The notes beneath the pieces were generated by a model. It did no database searches and was not told the origin of the DNA. It was given only the letters and a program-made list of their open reading frames with translations. Below are positions 8,350-17,444 of a stretch of 34,003 nucleotides of DNA, piece by piece; the stretch's first letter is position 1; each line of letters opens with the position of its first letter. The position numbers and the translations under genes were made by a program. The stretch lies in contig JADFOP010000020.1 of NCBI GenBank assembly GCA_022562795.1, forward strand, positions 1 through 34,003. Direction: 5' to 3'. The stretch comes from Nitrospinota bacterium (GTDB lineage: Bacteria; JADFOP01).

Positions 8350-10230
8350 ATGACGACGCCACCCGCCAGCACTGCCGCCTCGCTGCTTCGGCGCTGGTGG
8401 CCCTTTCTGCTCGTGGCCGTAGTGGCGGTGGGCGTTTTTTCAAACAGCTTCAACAACGAATTCATCTACGACGATAGGATAGCCATCGTAGAAAACCCCT
8501 ACATCCGCTCCTGGTCCAATCTTTGGGAGCTGATAAACCCCACCTCCACATTCCATCGCACCTACATGCTTCTGAGCTGGCGACCGCTCCAAAGTTTCTC
8601 CTATCTTGCAACTTACATGCTCTTCGGCCTTAATGCAGGACCCCACCATATCTTCAATGTAGCCTTCCATGCCCTTAACGCCGTCCTTGTCTTCGTGATT
8701 CTTCGGCGGCTGACCCGCCACGAGGCGGTCGCTCTTATCGGGGCCCTGGCATTCGCCGTCCACCCCATCCACATTGAGGCGGTTCAGGTCTCGGCCCTGC
8801 GGGCGGACCTTCTGTCCACTCCCTTATTCATCGCCGCCCTCTTATGTCATCTTCGCCTGCGAAGCCGTCCGGGCGACAAACCTCTTCTGTGGGCGGGCCT
8901 TGCGGCGGCGGCCTACTTCTTCTCTTGCACGGCCAAGGAGGTGGGAGCAATCCTCCCGCTGCTGGCTCTCTTCCTCGACGCCCGCCGCCACAAGCTCAGA
9001 GGGCTGCTCAACCTGGAAGGGATTAGGCCTTATCTCGGTTACGCAGTTGCGGCGGCCCTTTACGGCTTGCTACGATTCGGCATTTTCAGCAACGTCCACC
9101 AAGGGGATTTCTACATAGGGGATACGCTCCTGGCGGCCGTTCTTACCACCGGCAGGATTTTCGTCTACTACATCGACCACCTCCTGTTGCCCTTCGATAT
9201 GCGACCCGATTATGTCTTCGCCGCCTCAATGGCGCCCGACCTGGCCAGCTTGAGTTCCTGGGCGCTGCTTGCCTCCCTGGCCGGGGTAGCCTGGCTCGCC
9301 CGCCGCCGCCACCCTACCCTCACGCTGGGGCTTGTGTGGCTCGGCGTTACCCTCCTTCCCGTGACGAACGTCGTTCCCATCCGCAACCCCATGGCGGACC
9401 GCTATCTATACCTGCCGTCGATCGGCTTTAGCGCCATTGTGGGCTGGGCATTGGTCGAGGCGAGCCGAGCCGCGAAGCAGCGGTGGGGAGTGTCGCGAGC
9501 AGGTGTATTGGCCCTGCTCGGAGCGGCGGTGTTCATACCCTGGGGAGCCGTTACCTTGAAGCAAAACACCGTCTGGCGCAACAATATGAATTTGTGGACC
9601 GAGACGGCGCGCCTTGAGCCAAAAAGCGCCAGGGCCCAATACAACCTGGGGGTGTTCAGTCAGCGACAGGACTCATATGAGACCGCCATGGCATACTACC
9701 GCGAGGCGGTACGGCTCGCCCCCGGTTACGGCAAGGCGAACGGCAACCTGGGAGTCCTCATGGCATTGGAGGGCAACAATGCTGAGGCCGAGGTTTTTTT
9801 AAAAAGAGCCATTGCCTTAGATCGGTCCGATGGTTCTGCATATAACAACCTGGGGTTTTTCTATTATCGCCAGGGCCTGACGAAGAAGGCCGAGCCTTAC
9901 TACCACGAAGCGATACGGCTTGAGCCGACTTTCGCCAAGGCGCTCGACAACCTAGGAACCCTGCTGGAAGGGAAGGGTAAATATGCGGAGGCCGAAGCCG
10001 CTTACCTGCGCGCGGTTGCCGCCAAGCCGGAATACACCAAGGCCCACCTCAACCTCGCCGTCCTTTACCTTAAATTTCTCAAGACGCCCGAGAAGGCCCT
10101 TCCCCATCTGGAGGCGATCATCCGCATAAAGCCCGACCACCCCGATATTGAGCTAATCAGGTCCCAGGCCCGCAAACTTAGGGGGGAGTCTAAGTTTTTC
10201 GGAGAAATTCCGCTCCTTCCCGGCAGATGA
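8350..10230 (+). CDS. TMTC-like membrane glycosyltransferase (GT-C type) with C-terminal TPR repeats
   Basis: FIYDD, WRPL, HP, KE, ADRYLYLP in a multi-TM region followed by several TPRs (AQYNLG, AYNNLG, ALDNLG, AHLNLA). Confidence 0.85.
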   Translation: MTTPPASTAASLLRRWWPFLLVAVVAVGVFSNSFNNEFIYDDRIAIVENPYIRSWSNLWELINPTSTFHRTYMLLSWRPLQSFSYLATYMLFGLNAGPHHIFNVAFHALNAVLVFVILRRLTRHEAVALIGALAFAVHPIHIEAVQVSALRADLLSTPLFIAALLCHLRLRSRPGDKPLLWAGLAAAAYFFSCTAKEVGAILPLLALFLDARRHKLRGLLNLEGIRPYLGYAVAAALYGLLRFGIFSNVHQGDFYIGDTLLAAVLTTGRIFVYYIDHLLLPFDMRPDYVFAASMAPDLASLSSWALLASLAGVAWLARRRHPTLTLGLVWLGVTLLPVTNVVPIRNPMADRYLYLPSIGFSAIVGWALVEASRAAKQRWGVSRAGVLALLGAAVFIPWGAVTLKQNTVWRNNMNLWTETARLEPKSARAQYNLGVFSQRQDSYETAMAYYREAVRLAPGYGKANGNLGVLMALEGNNAEAEVFLKRAIALDRSDGSAYNNLGFFYYRQGLTKKAEPYYHEAIRLEPTFAKALDNLGTLLEGKGKYAEAEAAYLRAVAAKPEYTKAHLNLAVLYLKFLKTPEKALPHLEAIIRIKPDHPDIELIRSQARKLRGESKFFGEIPLLPGR

Positions 10231-10321
10231 AGCAAGAGCCGGTGGGAGCCTACCGGGCCGTTTTTTCCGGGATTTTCCGAATCATGGGTAGGGCAGGAAG
10301 CATCTTCGGATACAGCGGCCT

Positions 10322-11371
10322 CTAGACTTTTTCAACCAACCAGCCTTCGATTTCAACTTCCACCGCCCGGTTTAGGAGGTCCACCGAGATGACGATCCTC
10401 TGGCGCTTCTCTATGACCCCCACCATAATGCCCTCGGCTCCCTTCAGGGGCCCGTCGACCACCTGGACCCGATCACCGGTATCAAGGTACGGGTGGTGGC
10501 GGACGTGGAGGCCCGATTCAACAACTTTTTGGATGGAGTGGACTTGCTCCTCGGGAACAGGGACGGGTTTGTCGGCGTAGCCAAGGAGATTGGCCGCGCC
10601 GGGCGTCTTGACGATCTCGAGCCAGGCATCCTTCGTGAGCTCGCACTCGACGAAGAGGTAGCCAGGGAACATGGGTTGAGTGATCCGCTTTTTGCGATCT
10701 TTGCGGCGGCTCCAGACCTCAATTGTTGGCAAGAAGGCGTGAAATTTCTTGCTTAGAAGCCGGTCTGTAACCTTCTGTTCGTGGCGGCTCTTCGTCCTGA
10801 GCGCATACCACTTAACGGAGGGATCTTTCGGGGATTTTAGATGGCCAAGGCCCTCGGGCAGCAGGGCGAGAAGCTCCTCGACCACCTGCTCGGGCGCCCG
10901 GTCGGTCGTCTCAACATTGATGGTGGCCAGGGCGTTATAGACCGGCTCGCGCTCCTCCAAGAGAGCCTCGAAGGAGGCTCGCGGGTCGCCGGGGTCGAAG
11001 AAGGCAGGCAGGCCCTCGTCCATAATGCGGGCAAAGAGCGCTTCTTTCTCCACCTTGAGGTAGACCACACAGGACTGGGCGATCTGTCTCCTAAGGGGCT
11101 CACTGATAAGGGGTGTGCCCCCGCCTAGGGATATCACCTGCCCGTCGGTGGCGATGAGGTCGCCGGCCACTTCGGCCTCCAGCCGCCTGAAAGCCTCCGC
11201 GCCGAGGTTGCGGAAGATATCCCGAAAGGCAAGCGGCTCGCCCGAGCTGGAGGCGTAGCGGTGCTCGATTGCTTGGTCGAGGTCGACGAAAGGCCTCTCA
11301 AGGCGGTGGGCCAGGGCCCGGCCCACGGTCGTCTTGCCCGAGCCTTTAAAGCCGATGAGGACGACGTTCAT
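10322..11371 (-). CDS. Fusion: shikimate kinase (aa ~1-172) plus NusG-paralog UpxY/RfaH-type antiterminator (NGN+KOW, aa 188-349)
   Basis: N-half GFKGSGKT, DLD, FRRLE, GGG, EREPVY; C-half WYALRTKSRHE, PMFPGYLFV, GDRVQVVDGPLKGAEG; single uninterrupted frame. Confidence 0.9.
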   Translation of the reverse strand: MNVVLIGFKGSGKTTVGRALAHRLERPFVDLDQAIEHRYASSSGEPLAFRDIFRNLGAEAFRRLEAEVAGDLIATDGQVISLGGGTPLISEPLRRQIAQSCVVYLKVEKEALFARIMDEGLPAFFDPGDPRASFEALLEEREPVYNALATINVETTDRAPEQVVEELLALLPEGLGHLKSPKDPSVKWYALRTKSRHEQKVTDRLLSKKFHAFLPTIEVWSRRKDRKKRITQPMFPGYLFVECELTKDAWLEIVKTPGAANLLGYADKPVPVPEEQVHSIQKVVESGLHVRHHPYLDTGDRVQVVDGPLKGAEGIMVGVIEKRQRIVISVDLLNRAVEVEIEGWLVEKV

Positions 11372-12366
11372 CAGCCGCCTCCAGTGGTGACCGCTTCCTG
11401 TATTATACGGGCCCAGCCTGGGGATGGCAACGGCGGAAGGCGCCGCCTCAGAGAGTTCAGGACCGCCGAAGCGTCAGCCTCTACATCGTCGCTGGCCTCC
11501 ACCCACTCGATGCCTGGCAGCTTGCGGAACCAGGTCATTTGCCGCTTGGCGTAGCGGCGGGTCTCGCGCATTATGTCCGCCTGGGCTTCCTCGATAGTGC
11601 ACGTCCCGGCCAGGTGCTCGGCCATCTGGCGGTAGCCGATCCCTTGGAGAGCCGGCAGTTCAAGCCCATAGCCCGCCTCCAGGAGCGAGCTGACCTCCTC
11701 TGCCACCCCGGCGTCTATCATGGCCTCGACCCGGGCAGTGATCCGCTCGGCCAGCGCCGCGCGCGGACGGACCAACCCCACGGCCACGAGTCGGAAGGGC
11801 CCGGGCGTCTCGGCTGCCCTCCGTTGCATGGAACTGATTGGCTCCCCGGTGAGCACGTAGACCTCCAGCGCTCTCACGATTCGGACAAGGTCGTGGGGAT
11901 GGATCGACTCGGCCGCCTCGGGGTCCACCGCCGCCAGCCGTGCGTGGAGGGCAGGTCGGCCCTTGGCCTCGGCCTCCGCCCTCAGGCCGGCCCGGAGGTC
12001 CGGGTCCGACGGGGGTCCCGGAAAGAGTCCCTCAGCCAGGGCACGAAGATAGAGGCCGCTGCCTCCCACCACGAGCGGCCAGACAGCCCGCTCGAAGCAG
12101 AAAGCAGCCGCTTTACGGGCGGCCTTCCCAAAGTCTGCTGCGGTGAAGTGGTCGTGAGGGTTGGCTAGATCGAGGCCGTGATGTGTGATGCGAGTCCGGT
12201 CGGCGGCCGTCGGCTTGGCCGTTCCGATATCCATGCCACGGTAGACCTGCCGGGAATCACAACTGAGAATTTCAGCCGGTAGGGCCTCGGCCACAGGAAG
12301 GCTTACAGCCGTCTTGCCCACGGCCGTCGGTCCCACGATGGCTGGAAGTGGCAGGAGATTCCCCAC
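11371..12366 (-). CDS. miaA: tRNA dimethylallyltransferase
   Basis: GPTAVGKT, DSRQVYRGMDIGTAKP, VGGSGLY, IGY, TRRYAKRQMTWF; GTG at 12366 preceded by GGAGG. Confidence 0.95.
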   Translation of the reverse strand: MGNLLPLPAIVGPTAVGKTAVSLPVAEALPAEILSCDSRQVYRGMDIGTAKPTAADRTRITHHGLDLANPHDHFTAADFGKAARKAAAFCFERAVWPLVVGGSGLYLRALAEGLFPGPPSDPDLRAGLRAEAEAKGRPALHARLAAVDPEAAESIHPHDLVRIVRALEVYVLTGEPISSMQRRAAETPGPFRLVAVGLVRPRAALAERITARVEAMIDAGVAEEVSSLLEAGYGLELPALQGIGYRQMAEHLAGTCTIEEAQADIMRETRRYAKRQMTWFRKLPGIEWVEASDDVEADASAVLNSLRRRLPPLPSPGWARIIQEAVTTGGG

Positions 12367-12385
12367 GACTGGCCCTCCCGGGAAC

Positions 12386-12414
12386 AAAGAAAAAGCCGGG
12401 GCAGAGCCCCTGCC
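12386..12414 (-). terminator. Candidate intrinsic terminator between ihfB and miaA
   Basis: Minus strand GGCAGGGGC-TCT-GCCCC-GGC-TTTTTCTTT. Confidence 0.4.
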
Positions 12415-12467
12415 TCTCAAAGGGTTTGGTCTACTAGAGGTGAGCCGGCGGCATGGGGCGAAAGCCT

Positions 12468-12743
12468 TTAGTTATCAATCATCTCCCGCAATTCTTTGCC
12501 GGCTTTGAAGAAAGGCACTTTCTTGGCTGGAATGAAGACGGTGGCGCCAGTCTTTGGGTTGCGCCCCTCTCGGCTGTGGCGGTGTCGCACTCGGAAGGAG
12601 CCAAACCCTCGCAGCTCCACCTTGTCGCCATTTGCCAAGGCCTCGGTGATGCTCTGGAATACCGTATTGACGATTACCTCGGTTTGCTTCTTCGTCAGAT
12701 CGATGCGCTCCGCAACCTTCTCAACCAGCTCTGCCTTGGTCAT
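12468..12743 (-). CDS. ihfB: Integration host factor beta-like (HU/IHF family) protein
   Basis: MTKAELV, KVELRGFGSF, GRNPKTG, VPFFKAGKELRE; start ATG 12743. Confidence 0.85.
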   Translation of the reverse strand: MTKAELVEKVAERIDLTKKQTEVIVNTVFQSITEALANGDKVELRGFGSFRVRHRHSREGRNPKTGATVFIPAKKVPFFKAGKELREMIDN

Positions 12744-12819
12744 AAGTTTGCTCCCCCCACTTGCGCTCCATCGAGGATGTGGTGCCCCTGAAAAAGATGA
12801 TAATTGACTGAGGATAGGC

Positions 12820-12848
12820 AAGTTAGCATAACCCTGGGAGGCTGTCAA
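12820..12848 (-). promoter_or_regulatory. Sigma70-type promoter for ihfB
   Basis: Minus strand TTGACA-17 nt-TAACTT. Confidence 0.55.
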
Positions 12849-13550: not shown

Positions 13551-14624
13551 GTGGTTCCTTGCAAGAGGGGACCAATAGAGGAGCATGAGGCTTTGACGCC
13601 CCTTCGCCGACATTACAGATACGCTCACTTCTACCTGAACCATGTCGTGGGCAACCGCCTTCGCCGGACCGTCCGAAGCTCCCTCCTCAAGCCGTTCTGT
13701 GTAACTTACCACGTTACCGACCGGTCTCACCTTGCCCCTGTCGCGGGGGGTAGGCTGGCCCCGGGAACTTCCCCGGAAGCCCCTCTGGCAGACGTGCTGA
13801 CGCTCCTTAAAAAAGTCCGAAAAGAGGTGAGGATGCTCTACCTTTCTGGAGGTGAGCCCCTGCTCCATCCGGCCGTCGGCACAATAGCTACCGCCGCTCG
13901 TGGGTTGGGCTTCGAGCCTATTGTGCTGGAGACCGATTTCACGCTCGCCGACGAGCACGAAGAACTCCTCCAGCATTGCCATCTCGTGGTAGTCCCCCTG
14001 GAGACGGTAGAGGTTGGGAGGCAGGCAGCCCGGTGGCAGTGCGACCCAAGGTGGGTGGAGCGTCTCGTAGGAAACCTTGTCCACTTTGGGCCTCGCCAGG
14101 ACGAGTTGGGCGTCAGGATCATCATCAAGAGCGTCATAGGGGAGGGGACGATTGAAGGGGTTTACGACCTTATGGAATTTTGCTTCGAGCACAACCTCCT
14201 TTTCGCGCCGACCACCTCCAACAGCCTCGATCCGCCAGACCGGCGGGTTCAGAGCGATCCGGCCTATGAGAGGCTGGTGGATTACATAATCGCCCGCAAG
14301 AAGGCAGGCGCCCCAATCCTCGGCGGTCCCGAATCCCTCCGGCGACTTATGGCTTTCGAGGATTTCTCCTGCTACCCGACACTGGCTCCCCACATAGCAC
14401 CCAACGGAGAGCTCTTCTACCCCTGCATGCCCCAAAAGGAGGCGGGTGGCAATCTCCTTGCTGAGAGGACCCTGACGGCGCTCTACCGACGGGCCGAACA
14501 GTCATTCCGCTCTCTGCATGGGGAATTGCACGACTGCCGCCTCCACGGCTACATTACCAAGACCTGGCTGCTCGAGCATTTCTTCGACCGGTCCATTGAA
14601 GGCCTGACCGTTTTTGCCAAATAG
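13551..14624 (+). CDS. Radical SAM-fold protein lacking the CxxxCxxC motif
   Basis: LYLSGGEPLLHP and Twitch/SPASM-like CY...IAPNGELFYPC present; cluster-motif position reads VTDRSHLAPVAG; start uncertain (13551 or TTG 13593). Confidence 0.75.
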   Translation: MVPCKRGPIEEHEALTPLRRHYRYAHFYLNHVVGNRLRRTVRSSLLKPFCVTYHVTDRSHLAPVAGGRLAPGTSPEAPLADVLTLLKKVRKEVRMLYLSGGEPLLHPAVGTIATAARGLGFEPIVLETDFTLADEHEELLQHCHLVVVPLETVEVGRQAARWQCDPRWVERLVGNLVHFGPRQDELGVRIIIKSVIGEGTIEGVYDLMEFCFEHNLLFAPTTSNSLDPPDRRVQSDPAYERLVDYIIARKKAGAPILGGPESLRRLMAFEDFSCYPTLAPHIAPNGELFYPCMPQKEAGGNLLAERTLTALYRRAEQSFRSLHGELHDCRLHGYITKTWLLEHFFDRSIEGLTVFAK

Positions 14625-15776: not shown

Positions 15777-15813
15777 GTATGGGCTCTCGTCGTTGGGCGG
15801 CGTTTGGAGACTA

Positions 15814-16224
15814 ATGATGCCTCGGCTAGGCTTGCACGCGCTTCTGGGGATGGTGTTCATGGTTGGCCTTGGCCTGGGGGCTGGCAATGCAGCGCCCACC
15901 ACTGGCTCCCTGGTGCTGCTTGCTACAGCGGCCCCTCAGCCGAAAGCCTTAAGGGTGGCGCCGGGGAGGATAGTCATCTGGCTAAACCGGACCAAGTACC
16001 GCCCCCTGACCCTCACCTTCGATGGCTCGCCTTCTCCCGACCCATCCTGCCCCGCCGGCATTGGTTTCGTCCGTCGCAACTCCCTGGTTTTCACCCAACC
16101 GGCCCTGCCTCCCGGAGGGACGGCCAGCCTCTGCTTTCCCGCCCCTGGGGTATACGCCTACGTGGTCCATGGTCTCGGCCACCCTGCCTCCGGAACCGTA
16201 ACGGTGGGGGGCCGCCTCCCATGA
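15814..16224 (+). CDS. Exported cupredoxin-like beta-sandwich protein
   Basis: Signal peptide; LRVAPGRIVIWLN, LPPGGTASLCFPAPGVYAY...GTVTV; GGAG before ATG. Confidence 0.6.
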   Translation: MMPRLGLHALLGMVFMVGLGLGAGNAAPTTGSLVLLATAAPQPKALRVAPGRIVIWLNRTKYRPLTLTFDGSPSPDPSCPAGIGFVRRNSLVFTQPALPPGGTASLCFPAPGVYAYVVHGLGHPASGTVTVGGRLP

Positions 16225-17444
16225 CACGCCGGTGGTGTGGAGCCCTCCTTGCTGGTCTCGTCGCGGCCCTCATAGGCTGCGCCAGCCAGCCGGAAGTGAC
16301 GGCCCCCGGGCCCACGAGGGACATCCGGCTGCCCATCCGGGTAGCCGTCCTGCCATTCTATCTTGACGTGAAACCGCCCGCCGACCCGCTCCAGCGCCTG
16401 GCGACTCAGATTCTCAGGGAGCAGTTCTTCAACCGCTTTTCCGCTCTAGGCTACCTCGACCTCGACCTGGCCGAAGTCGACCGTCGCCTCAAGGGCGCCA
16501 ATATCTTACCCGAGCAAGCCGCCGTAGCCCGTTCCCCCAACAGATTGGCCGCCATCCTAGGGGTGGACGGCCTCATCGTGGGTCGGGTGAAGGAGGTCTC
16601 CACGTTTAAAGGGGGGGTCTACACCGACGCGCGCCTTGGCGGGACAATCAAGCTTATCTCCTCGGATGGCGCCATCGTCTGGGAGGCCGAGCACACCGAG
16701 AGCCGCAAAGGGGGGCTGATCCTTCGTGGCGGCGAGCTGCTTCGGGCCATAGAAGACCTCCAGAGCCAGTTCAAGGACGAGCGGCACGTAACCTACCTGA
16801 AGCTGGCCGAGGAGTTTAGCCGCAAAGTAGTGGCAACCGTGCCGCAGCCTGCCCGGAATGTAGCCGAGTCCGTCGCACCGCCGCGTATTCGCCGGGTGAG
16901 CGTGCAGGTAGAGACGAAGCGGGTTCTTCAGGCTGGCGACCTGATACGCGTGGTTGTGGAGGGAGACACCGAAATGACCGGAACCATGAACCTCGGGCTA
17001 TGGCGTTCGGGTCTTCCACTGGTGGAGGGCTCACGGGGCAGGTACGAAGGCGCGTACACGATCCAGGCGGGTGATTCTGCCTCGGCCGTTCCCGTGATGG
17101 TCCGGCTGACCGACGCCTTCGGCCTGAGCGCAACCAGTCAGGCTGCTGGGATGGCCCTCACCGTGGATGCCGCTCCGCCGCCGCCGCCGGAGGAGGTGGT
17201 GGCCGAAGCCATTGCGGGCCAGGGGGTCGTCGTACGATGGCGTGTCGGCGCCGAGGCGTCCGGCGTCGCCCTCTACCGCTCTTGCCCTCCTGGAGGGGAG
17301 CTTATCCTGATGGCCCGGATCACCGACGGAGCGAGTTTCACAGACCGGTCGGGACTGGCCTCGGCGGGCTCGTGCAGCTACCAGGCGGCAACTTACGATG
17401 CCCACCGGAATCTCTCTTATCCGGTTGTGGCGAAGTGGAGGTAG
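16221..17444 (+). CDS. Lipoprotein: DUF799/GNA1162 (CsgG-like) domain, Ig-like domain, FN3-like tail
   Basis: Lipobox LIG-C; VAVLPF, EVDRRL, LGVDGLIVGRV, IVWEA; ATG 16221 overlaps upstream stop (ATGA). Confidence 0.7.
   Translation: MTRRWCGALLAGLVAALIGCASQPEVTAPGPTRDIRLPIRVAVLPFYLDVKPPADPLQRLATQILREQFFNRFSALGYLDLDLAEVDRRLKGANILPEQAAVARSPNRLAAILGVDGLIVGRVKEVSTFKGGVYTDARLGGTIKLISSDGAIVWEAEHTESRKGGLILRGGELLRAIEDLQSQFKDERHVTYLKLAEEFSRKVVATVPQPARNVAESVAPPRIRRVSVQVETKRVLQAGDLIRVVVEGDTEMTGTMNLGLWRSGLPLVEGSRGRYEGAYTIQAGDSASAVPVMVRLTDAFGLSATSQAAGMALTVDAAPPPPPEEVVAEAIAGQGVVVRWRVGAEASGVALYRSCPPGGELILMARITDGASFTDRSGLASAGSCSYQAATYDAHRNLSYPVVAKWR

Follow-up and report, generated by a model that had tools for sequence, protein, structure and literature searches.

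The window analyzed here, the whole stretch of 34,003 nucleotides of contig JADFOP010000020.1 from a Nitrospinota bacterium (assembly GCA_022562795.1), carries on its minus strand at 10322-11371 a single open reading frame (ORF) in which a shikimate kinase domain (SKI) is joined through a linker to the NGN and KOW domains of a NusG paralog. This architecture is real; it is rare and confined to one small lineage. From the architecture, its conservation and distribution, the pathway context and the gene neighborhoods, all of which were observed, we infer with a probability of about 55% that the fusion is bifunctional: the kinase half would still make shikimate 3-phosphate, and the NusG half would be a trans-acting antiterminator of the UpxY class, probably serving an exopolysaccharide (EPS)-type operon.

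Architecture and occurrence of the fusion

The ORF starts with ATG, encodes 349 amino acids followed by a stop codon, and runs in the order SKI, linker, NGN, KOW. Its parts are the following.

10322..11371, minus strand: fusion gene (ORF list; Pfam and NCBIfam; AlphaFold2 (AF2) model with mean pLDDT 92.6)
10862..11344, minus strand: SKI domain (PF01202), residues 10-170, the fold covering residues 1-170 (Pfam, E = 4e-32)
11330..11353, minus strand: Walker A motif (P-loop) GFKGSGKT, residues 7-14 (sequence; aligned with the P-loop of solved shikimate kinases)
10997..11029, minus strand: LID segment RIMDEGLPAFF, residues 115-125 (alignments to 1kag and 1l4u; subfamily alignment A2; motif count)
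10814..10855, minus strand: interdomain linker, residues 173-186 (alignment A1; drop in AF2 pLDDT)
10532..10813, minus strand: NGN domain (PF02357), residues 187-280 (Pfam, E = 6e-26)
10325..10531, minus strand: helix 274-286 and KOW region, residues 281-349, with the Pfam KOW match at 299-328 (Pfam, UpxY model, AF2)

A preliminary description of this DNA had quoted the 349-residue frame and a set of motifs, and every one of them was present in the ORF list and the sequence: GFKGSGKT at residues 7-14, DLD at 30-32, FRRLE at 61-65, GGG at 83-85, EREPVY at 140-145 and the linker at 172-187, with the Trp188 codon at 10808-10810. The SKI match scored 111.9 bits against a cut-off of 22.1. The KOW match had an E-value of 0.0018 and 18.5 bits, under its cut-off of 22.3; the UpxY model covered residues 188-345. 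Complete NGN and KOW domains had been described after a linker of about 15 residues, and in the AF2 model both were confident, KOW forming a five-strand beta barrel at residues 290-341 (pLDDT 79-91), and the kinase blocks had pLDDT values of 93-98. The linker at 171-185 was the sole weak stretch; the block 171-180 fell to 67, and residues 179-181 were below 50. The pTM was 0.63 although the mean pLDDT was 92.6, indicating that no fixed orientation of the kinase relative to NGN is predicted. Structure prediction thus gave confident domains and no confident packing between them. The model was built from the 103-row alignment A5 and replaced an earlier run on the 14-row alignment A1, in which the C-terminal half had a pLDDT of 30-40; the mixed MAFFT alignment A3 was not used because kinase-only rows were misplaced, with 9-14% identity to the query. 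Docking of the kinase (residues 1-175) to NGN-KOW (184-349) scored 0.00, where the mark is 0.32; no controls were run, and the result is evidence neither way.

Contigs assembled from three DNA runs of three independent studies bridged the junction at 10800-10870 without an insertion or deletion. They reached from 10200 to 11506, 11395 and 11080, each differing from the window by 2 substitutions and 0 gaps, and no insertion or deletion was listed for the contigs of these runs anywhere in 10200-12500. The linker contained neither a stop codon nor an ATG, and the identical continuous frame was found in 12 protein clusters from NCBI, ENA, JGI and Logan sources and in a second genome (G002, see below). 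It is therefore extremely improbable that the fusion is an artefact of assembly or gene calling, in which adjacent genes were merged through a missing base or a chimeric contig. Between 82 and 96% of the words sampled from the 1050-base gene were contained in each of 18 sediment metagenome runs. One 224-nt contig from metatranscriptome run X19 matched 11040-11243, in the kinase-coding part, with 6 differences; this was too little to claim expression, and the source of the contig may be a relative, or DNA present in the library.

The window's genome (G000) is that of an uncultured marine-sediment bacterium, 2.15 Mb long and 97.1% complete. Its only genus-mate, G001, is 85% complete and in 780 contigs; G002 belongs to another family of the same class and is 96% complete. 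A search of 41 genomes, counting G000, found both domains matched in G000 and G002. The G002 fusion (L114:10699-11724, on contig C26 of that genome) was 49% identical over residues 1-348 and holds the sole SKI-family domain there. G001 gave no more than an end fragment of 39 residues, located at the edge of a contig, no match was found in G004 (59% complete), and the other 37 genomes gave single-domain matches only. The same architecture was recovered in the 12 protein clusters mentioned above (P0001-P0012, two of them partial), which match at 38-97% identity, showing that the fusion is not unique to the window's assembly. A HMMER search of 1.84 billion representative proteins returned 41,729 matches at E ≤ 0.001. 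Two fusions were among the best 150, P0008 from the window's clade and P0010 from a sister clade, and the rest were single-domain kinases, single-domain NusG paralogs or other fusions; a more distant fusion below the 150th match (about 113 bits) would escape this search. No triple MiaA-kinase-NusG fusion was seen among the same 150 matches, for which no length limit was set. P0177 (346 aa, two matched stretches) was considered as a third fusion clade and rejected, as it consists of two tandem shikimate-kinase domains.

In the best tree of the NusG half, all 11 fusion rows formed one clade (SH-aLRT 70) with two subclades (SH-aLRT 95 and 100), and the gene order HU-miaA-fusion was the same in G002 as in the window. 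One fusion clade with a common synteny fits a single fusion event. No SKI-NusG fusion turned up in the literature searched, in line with the preliminary description; the papers naming both "shikimate kinase" and "NusG" concern no fusion in the parts that were available, and neither "fused" nor "fusion" occurred in the available text of PMC7819879 and PMC7593976, the supplement of the latter being a place where architectures of NusG paralogs may be listed. The sequences are public, with the architecture unremarked; the source labels are "shikimate kinase, partial", "transcriptional antiterminator NusG" and, on a record with the name Candidatus Tectimicrobiota bacterium, "UpxY family transcription antiterminator, partial".

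The kinase half and its counterpart in the sister clade

The kinase half aligned over its full length with solved shikimate kinases (1kag, E = 6e-21; 1l4u, E = 3e-20), and its P-loop, DLD, FRRLE, GGG and EREP fell on the same motifs of both. When the AF2 model of this half was compared with the Mycobacterium tuberculosis shikimate kinase 1l4u in Foldseek, the TM-score was 0.90 by target, with an rmsd of 2.1 Å and 35% identity. The Walker A lysine, DxD, the Arg of FRxxE, GGG and the Arg of ERxP are residues which we take to be the ATP and shikimate contacts in the M. tuberculosis and Escherichia coli enzymes. Walker A, DLD, FRxLE, GGG and ERE-P were kept in all 7 full-length or near-full-length sequences of the window's clade.

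The usual arginine of the LID had been reported missing, as a possible hint of altered function. Its absence was confirmed, but as a hint it did not stand, since the lack is normal among relatives: 49 of the top representatives were kinase-only proteins, 36 of them had a LID of the form G-x-P-[ASPT]-hydrophobic, x was Arg in 2 of these 36, and the nearest standalone relatives also had an arginine-less LID. Judged by sequence, the arginine-less LID is a trait of a large shikimate-kinase subfamily and is not peculiar to the fusion. The subfamily is marked by a Walker motif GFKGxGK[ST] and a LID reading G-x-P-A-F-F-D-P, x being usually hydrophobic. Eleven standalone proteins (alignment A4) shared the Walker form GFK[GAH]xGK[ST], and a short insertion before FREIY appeared when the standalone subfamily was set beside canonical shikimate kinases (alignment A2). 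Some members were fused to other enzymes: P0206 to AroB (dehydroquinate (DHQ) synthase; LID GLPAYL), P0208 to AroD-AroE (DHQase I and shikimate dehydrogenase) and L167 to AroQ (DHQase II). This joining to shikimate-pathway enzymes indicates that the subfamily belongs to the shikimate pathway.

The window's genome carries aroA, aroC, aroB, aroQ and aroE, and the fusion was its sole SKI match; a profile search of the genome for a second aroK found none. The archaeal-type GHMP shikimate kinase stayed under its cut-off in G000, G001 and G002, the two GHMP kinases of G000 being IspE and a sugar-kinase-like protein, and no kinase gene lay beside aroA-aroC, aroB-aroQ or aroE in G000. We take the kinase half to be the predicted working shikimate kinase of the cell because it is the sole SKI gene, the other aro genes are present, the motifs are kept and the fold is confident. 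In both G000 and G002 no recognizable homoserine kinase was found either: the GHMP matches were IspE and the sugar-kinase-like protein, thrB_alt was absent, and the model of the SKI-like homoserine kinase (hom_kin_desulfo) stayed under its cut-off.

The sister clade comprises five members (P0009-P0012 and the G002 protein). Identity between the two clades was 20-34% in the kinase half, 61-69% in NGN and 54-65% in the KOW region, so that the NusG half was the better conserved, and the kinase half was the faster-evolving part within each clade too. All five had lost GGG, four the second Asp of DxD, three the Arg of FRxLE and three the Arg of ERxP. P0012 additionally lacked the Walker lysine and 9 LID residues, and Walker A was kept in the other four. 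The kinase-like domain was still 166-176 aa long and in frame, followed by a linker 8 residues shorter than that of the window's clade; across the fusion members the linker measured 8-16 residues (alignment A1). G002 has aroA and aroC, and from its sole SKI domain D, R, GGG and R are gone; no other SKI gene or shikimate kinase was found in this 96%-complete genome. With these aro genes and no intact SKI domain in G002, an unrecognized shikimate kinase may exist in this class; if it does, the argument from a sole SKI gene to an active enzyme loses a little of its force for the window's clade.

The NusG half and the gene neighborhoods

The NusG half passed the NCBIfam UpxY model NF033644 with 120.7 bits (cut-off 100; residues 188-345, model positions 1-163/164). 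It did not pass the models for RfaH (TIGR01955, 89.7 against 144.5), LoaP (NF033641, 97.2 against 125) or NusG (TIGR00922, 82.1 against 135.7). The housekeeping NusG of G000 scored 221.2 bits on TIGR00922 and is encoded in secE-nusG-rplK-rplA on contig C7; Rho is present as well. With a separate true NusG and Rho, the fused copy is a specialized paralog, as had been proposed, and its class by NF033644 is UpxY.

Standalone orthologs were surveyed with two peptide motifs of the NusG half in species-representative genomes, which gave 378 loci, of which the best 80 were examined. In all of these 80 the NusG paralog stood alone, with no kinase in the fetched flanks; the record titles were Tectomicrobia, Nitrospirae, Nitrospinota, Anammoxibacter, Omnitrophota and many Syntrophales. 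The closest standalone ortholog among them (L034, 60%) lies between rmlA/rmlB/rmlD-like genes and genes for an epimerase and a DegT aminotransferase. Sugar-nucleotide or polysaccharide genes were on the same strand in 22 of the 62 ORF-indexed standalone loci, and in 6 of the 62 a 200-aa winged-helix (MarR-EPS-like) gene was directly upstream of the NusG paralog.

The fusion gene itself has a different setting, with these features around it.

11371..12420, minus strand: miaA, tRNA dimethylallyltransferase (Pfam IPPT, E = 3e-84; ORF coordinates)
12468..12848, minus strand: HU/IHF-type DNA-binding gene, first of the HU-miaA-kinase array (Pfam Bac_DNA_binding, E = 9e-36)
11402..11430, minus strand: promoter-like TTGCCA-17-TATAAT, sigma-70-type, 11/12 consensus (consensus match only)
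10239..10256, both strands, T-run stronger on plus: terminator-like hairpin between convergent genes (computed)
8350..10230, plus strand: convergent downstream gene (ORF list)

Both the TGATG coupling to miaA (stop and ATG overlapping, with base 11371 shared by the two genes) and the convergent downstream gene of the preliminary description were seen, with the terminator-like hairpin between the converging genes. The neighbors of the fusion gene are miaA, HU and genes for a TPR membrane protein, a NUDIX protein and folD; it does not head a polysaccharide operon. The promoter-like site is contained in the final 60 bases of miaA and is separated by about 30 nt from the fusion ATG downstream, which is preceded by GGAGG; 2 such sites were found against 0.6 expected in shuffles. 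With this site in the end of miaA, the fusion may also be transcribed on its own. The HU ORF is listed from a TTG 35 residues ahead of its Pfam domain (36-124), and its true start is probably Met36. Two long ORFs elsewhere in the window, 13551-14624 (plus strand, 357 aa, overlapping a 320-aa ORF on the opposite strand) and 15804-17444 (plus strand, 546 aa), had no Pfam match at E 1e-4.

HU and/or miaA genes were found just upstream of standalone subfamily kinases in L120, L132, L138-L140, L147 and L159, the metagenome loci L120, L147 and L159 having the HU-miaA-kinase order of the window, and in P0132 and L120 (about 880-2385) MiaA was fused in frame to a kinase of the arginine-less subfamily. 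A NusG paralog was present in none of 68 metagenome kinase-subfamily loci besides the window-like L119. Since the kinase occurs elsewhere with HU or miaA and without a NusG paralog, the array would predate the fusion and the NusG gene would be the newcomer. Split kinase and NusG-paralog genes were found in relatives neither among the best 80 of the 378 NusG-paralog loci nor among the 68 kinase-subfamily loci. A neutral fusion of neighbors had been offered as an alternative; it does not agree with genes that were adjacent in 0 of 80 NusG-paralog loci and 0 of 68 other kinase loci.

A homolog of the winged-helix protein, up to 47% identical to those preceding the NusG paralog in other phyla, was found on contig C26 of G000, at the head of the following genes.

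L115:7627-14035 (G000 contig C26, about 29626-36034): EPS-type operon with winged-helix, Wzy_C, GT4, Wzx-type flippase and two sulfotransferase genes

The best NCBIfam match of this winged-helix protein was the MarR family EPS-associated regulator (70 bits, under the cut-off of 88). The Wzy-type, GT4, Wzx-type and two sulfotransferase genes lie directly 3' of its gene, and DegT and LPG_synthase_TM genes precede it. There was no NusG paralog at this operon; the slot behind the winged-helix gene was empty. G001 has the winged-helix gene as well (63%). The leader of the operon is about 237 nt long, and a promoter-like TTGACA-spacer-TATAAT pair about 250-278 nt before the start codon is common to G000 and G001, as are the palindrome GTTCAAnAATTGAAC (GTTCAAAAATTGAAC) just after the promoter and, at about -122, a hairpin that is conserved. 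At 7 other loci the sequence upstream of the winged-helix gene contained a promoter-like TTGACA box in 5 and a GTTCAA..TGAAC palindrome in 4; the leader-motif search upstream of winged-helix genes found no element tied to the NusG paralog. By analogy with the standalone loci, the EPS-type operon on C26 is a likely candidate for a target in trans.

Explanations and meaning

The bifunctional reading can be set out as follows. The N-terminal half (residues 1-170) would supply shikimate 3-phosphate to an otherwise complete pathway. In the C-terminal half (187-349), NGN would bind the elongating RNA polymerase and the KOW beta barrel would carry antitermination, acting in trans because no long operon adjoins the fusion. 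The kinase gene would at first have stood in an HU-miaA-kinase array, and the NusG-paralog gene inside or at the head of a sugar or polysaccharide operon. We infer that it was the NusG-paralog gene that moved: it would have left its operon and, in the common ancestor from which this class-level lineage descends, become attached a single time to the kinase gene at its 3' end, and the relocated paralog would now serve the EPS-type operon in trans. The fusion would thereby put antiterminator production under the housekeeping HU-miaA-aroK unit and, possibly, a promoter of its own within miaA. Allosteric coupling of the two halves would not be needed.

Among known systems, the UpxY proteins of Bacteroides capsule operons are the closest in class, with NGN and KOW domains; the fusion passes their model and has standalone orthologs in sugar and polysaccharide operons. 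UpxY is described as the first gene of the operon it controls and as paired with UpxZ (PMC11685472 and PMC7593976, available parts), whereas the fusion sits in a housekeeping HU-miaA array, must act in trans and has a 170-aa N-terminal enzyme domain. RfaH of E. coli is autoinhibited by an alpha-helical KOW, according to the accessible part of PMC6370827; the fusion does not pass the RfaH equivalog model, no ops-like site was identified for it, and its KOW was modelled as a beta barrel (pLDDT 79-91), a single predicted state with which fold switching is compatible. LoaP of Bacillus velezensis, described in the accessible part of PMC12691694 as a NusG paralog promoting antitermination of long biosynthetic operons, differs in having no extra domain and in a model that the fusion does not pass. 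A gained domain is shared with Thermotoga maritima NusG, in which domain DII is inserted in the housekeeping protein and is said to stabilize RNA polymerase binding (PMC7819879, available part); DII is the only extra domain of bacterial NusG mentioned in the available text of PMC7819879 and PMC7593976, so that extra domains appear exceptional. Unlike that case, the fusion joins a complete metabolic enzyme to the N terminus of a specialized paralog. The AroK-AroB, AroK-AroD-AroE, AroK-AroQ and MiaA-kinase fusions (P0206, P0208, L167, P0132 and L120) draw on the same kinase subfamily, but their partners are pathway enzymes or the neighboring tRNA-modification enzyme; an elongation-factor partner was seen in two representative clusters among the best 150.

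Several observations weigh against the bifunctional reading. Leu121 occupies the position of the canonical LID arginine (R-P-L-L type), a residue that is important in studied shikimate kinases, and the domain stayed under every NCBIfam shikimate-kinase equivalog cut-off, the best scores being 106.7 against 186 and 106.2 against 217 bits. The class may have an unrecognized shikimate kinase, and retention of the whole length of the decayed domain by the sister clade is a hint of a role other than catalysis, which two independent functions leave unexplained. Among the ORF-indexed standalone loci 40 of 62 were without sugar genes nearby, the C26 operon was chosen as the target by analogy only, and its winged-helix query found no match in G002, G008 and G027, of which the absence from G002 is the unfavorable one. 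It is mainly the decay in the sister clade that leaves regulatory and non-catalytic roles a minor, equal share of the probability each. In the non-catalytic version, which we consider a possible but distinctly less probable account, the kinase-like domain is inactive throughout the family, the window's protein included, and persists as a folded N-terminal module for stability, oligomerization, tethering or expression coupling to miaA, while an unrecognized enzyme shared by the class phosphorylates shikimate. G002 needs an alternative kinase, unless the step is missing, and the missing LID arginine and low equivalog scores of the window's domain point the same way. Against it, 7 of 7 sequences of the window's clade keep the active-site motifs, pointing to purifying selection, arginine-less relatives are fused to AroB, and G000 has neither a candidate kinase beside its aro genes nor a GHMP-type shikimate kinase.

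The preliminary description had favored a ligand-gated one-component antiterminator, in which the kinase domain senses shikimate and/or ATP and alters how accessible the NGN surface is to RNA polymerase, tying aromatic-precursor or energy status to read-through of the target operon. This proposal is doubtful, about as much so as the non-catalytic module. The in-frame fusion is kept in sequences down to 38% identity with only 8-16 residues between kinase and NGN, the domain is held at 166-176 aa despite catalytic decay, as expected of a second, non-catalytic role, and ATP binding may yet play a part, four of the five sister-clade members having retained Walker A. However, the shikimate-contact residues are lost in that clade, so shikimate sensing is not a conserved property, which argues against it as the reason the fusion persists; P0012 lacks the Walker lysine as well. 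The linker is predicted to be disordered, no interdomain packing is confidently predicted (pTM 0.63 against pLDDT 92.6), and in each clade the kinase half has been diverging more quickly than the NusG half. Gating by shikimate or ATP found no support. Least probable of the functional alternatives is an SKI-like domain that phosphorylates another alcohol, for example homoserine. There is a precedent in Desulfovibrio vulgaris, whose SKI-related homoserine kinase DvMF_0971 carries a shikimate-kinase annotation and is reported to rescue a thrB mutant of E. coli (available part of preprint 10.1101/192971), and G000 and G002 are both without a recognizable homoserine kinase. The hom_kin_desulfo model gave 86.5-88.5 bits, but this is far under its cut-off of 197 and no better than the shikimate-kinase models; D. 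vulgaris has a second, true shikimate kinase, according to the same part of that preprint, and G000 has none, and the nearest relatives are fused to shikimate-pathway enzymes. The bifunctional fusion thus remains the reading we prefer.

To our knowledge, NusG-family factors are the only transcription regulators common to all life, and for this family a specialized paralog fused with an enzyme of core metabolism is a new architecture. If the two halves are merely co-expressed, this is an ordinary though rare gene fusion. The finding exposes two unfilled steps, the shikimate kinase of G002 and the homoserine kinase of G000 and G002, and it brings out a large subfamily of shikimate kinases in which the LID arginine is lacking and which is worth enzymological attention. 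The standalone kinase, the active-looking kinase-NusG fusion and the decayed kinase-NusG fusion form a natural series, which may reveal how an enzyme turns into an accessory domain for transcription, and an operon-resident antiterminator into a trans-acting one. There is also a small chance that the kinase domain was recruited as a regulatory module coupling aromatic-precursor or energy status to read-through of an exopolysaccharide operon, still binding or turning over shikimate and ATP in the window's clade, with a pseudokinase used for regulation or tethering in the sister clade. If so, the fusion would be the first case of a NusG-family factor under the control of a sensor domain derived from an enzyme, and the two clades would represent two stages of an enzyme-to-regulator transition.

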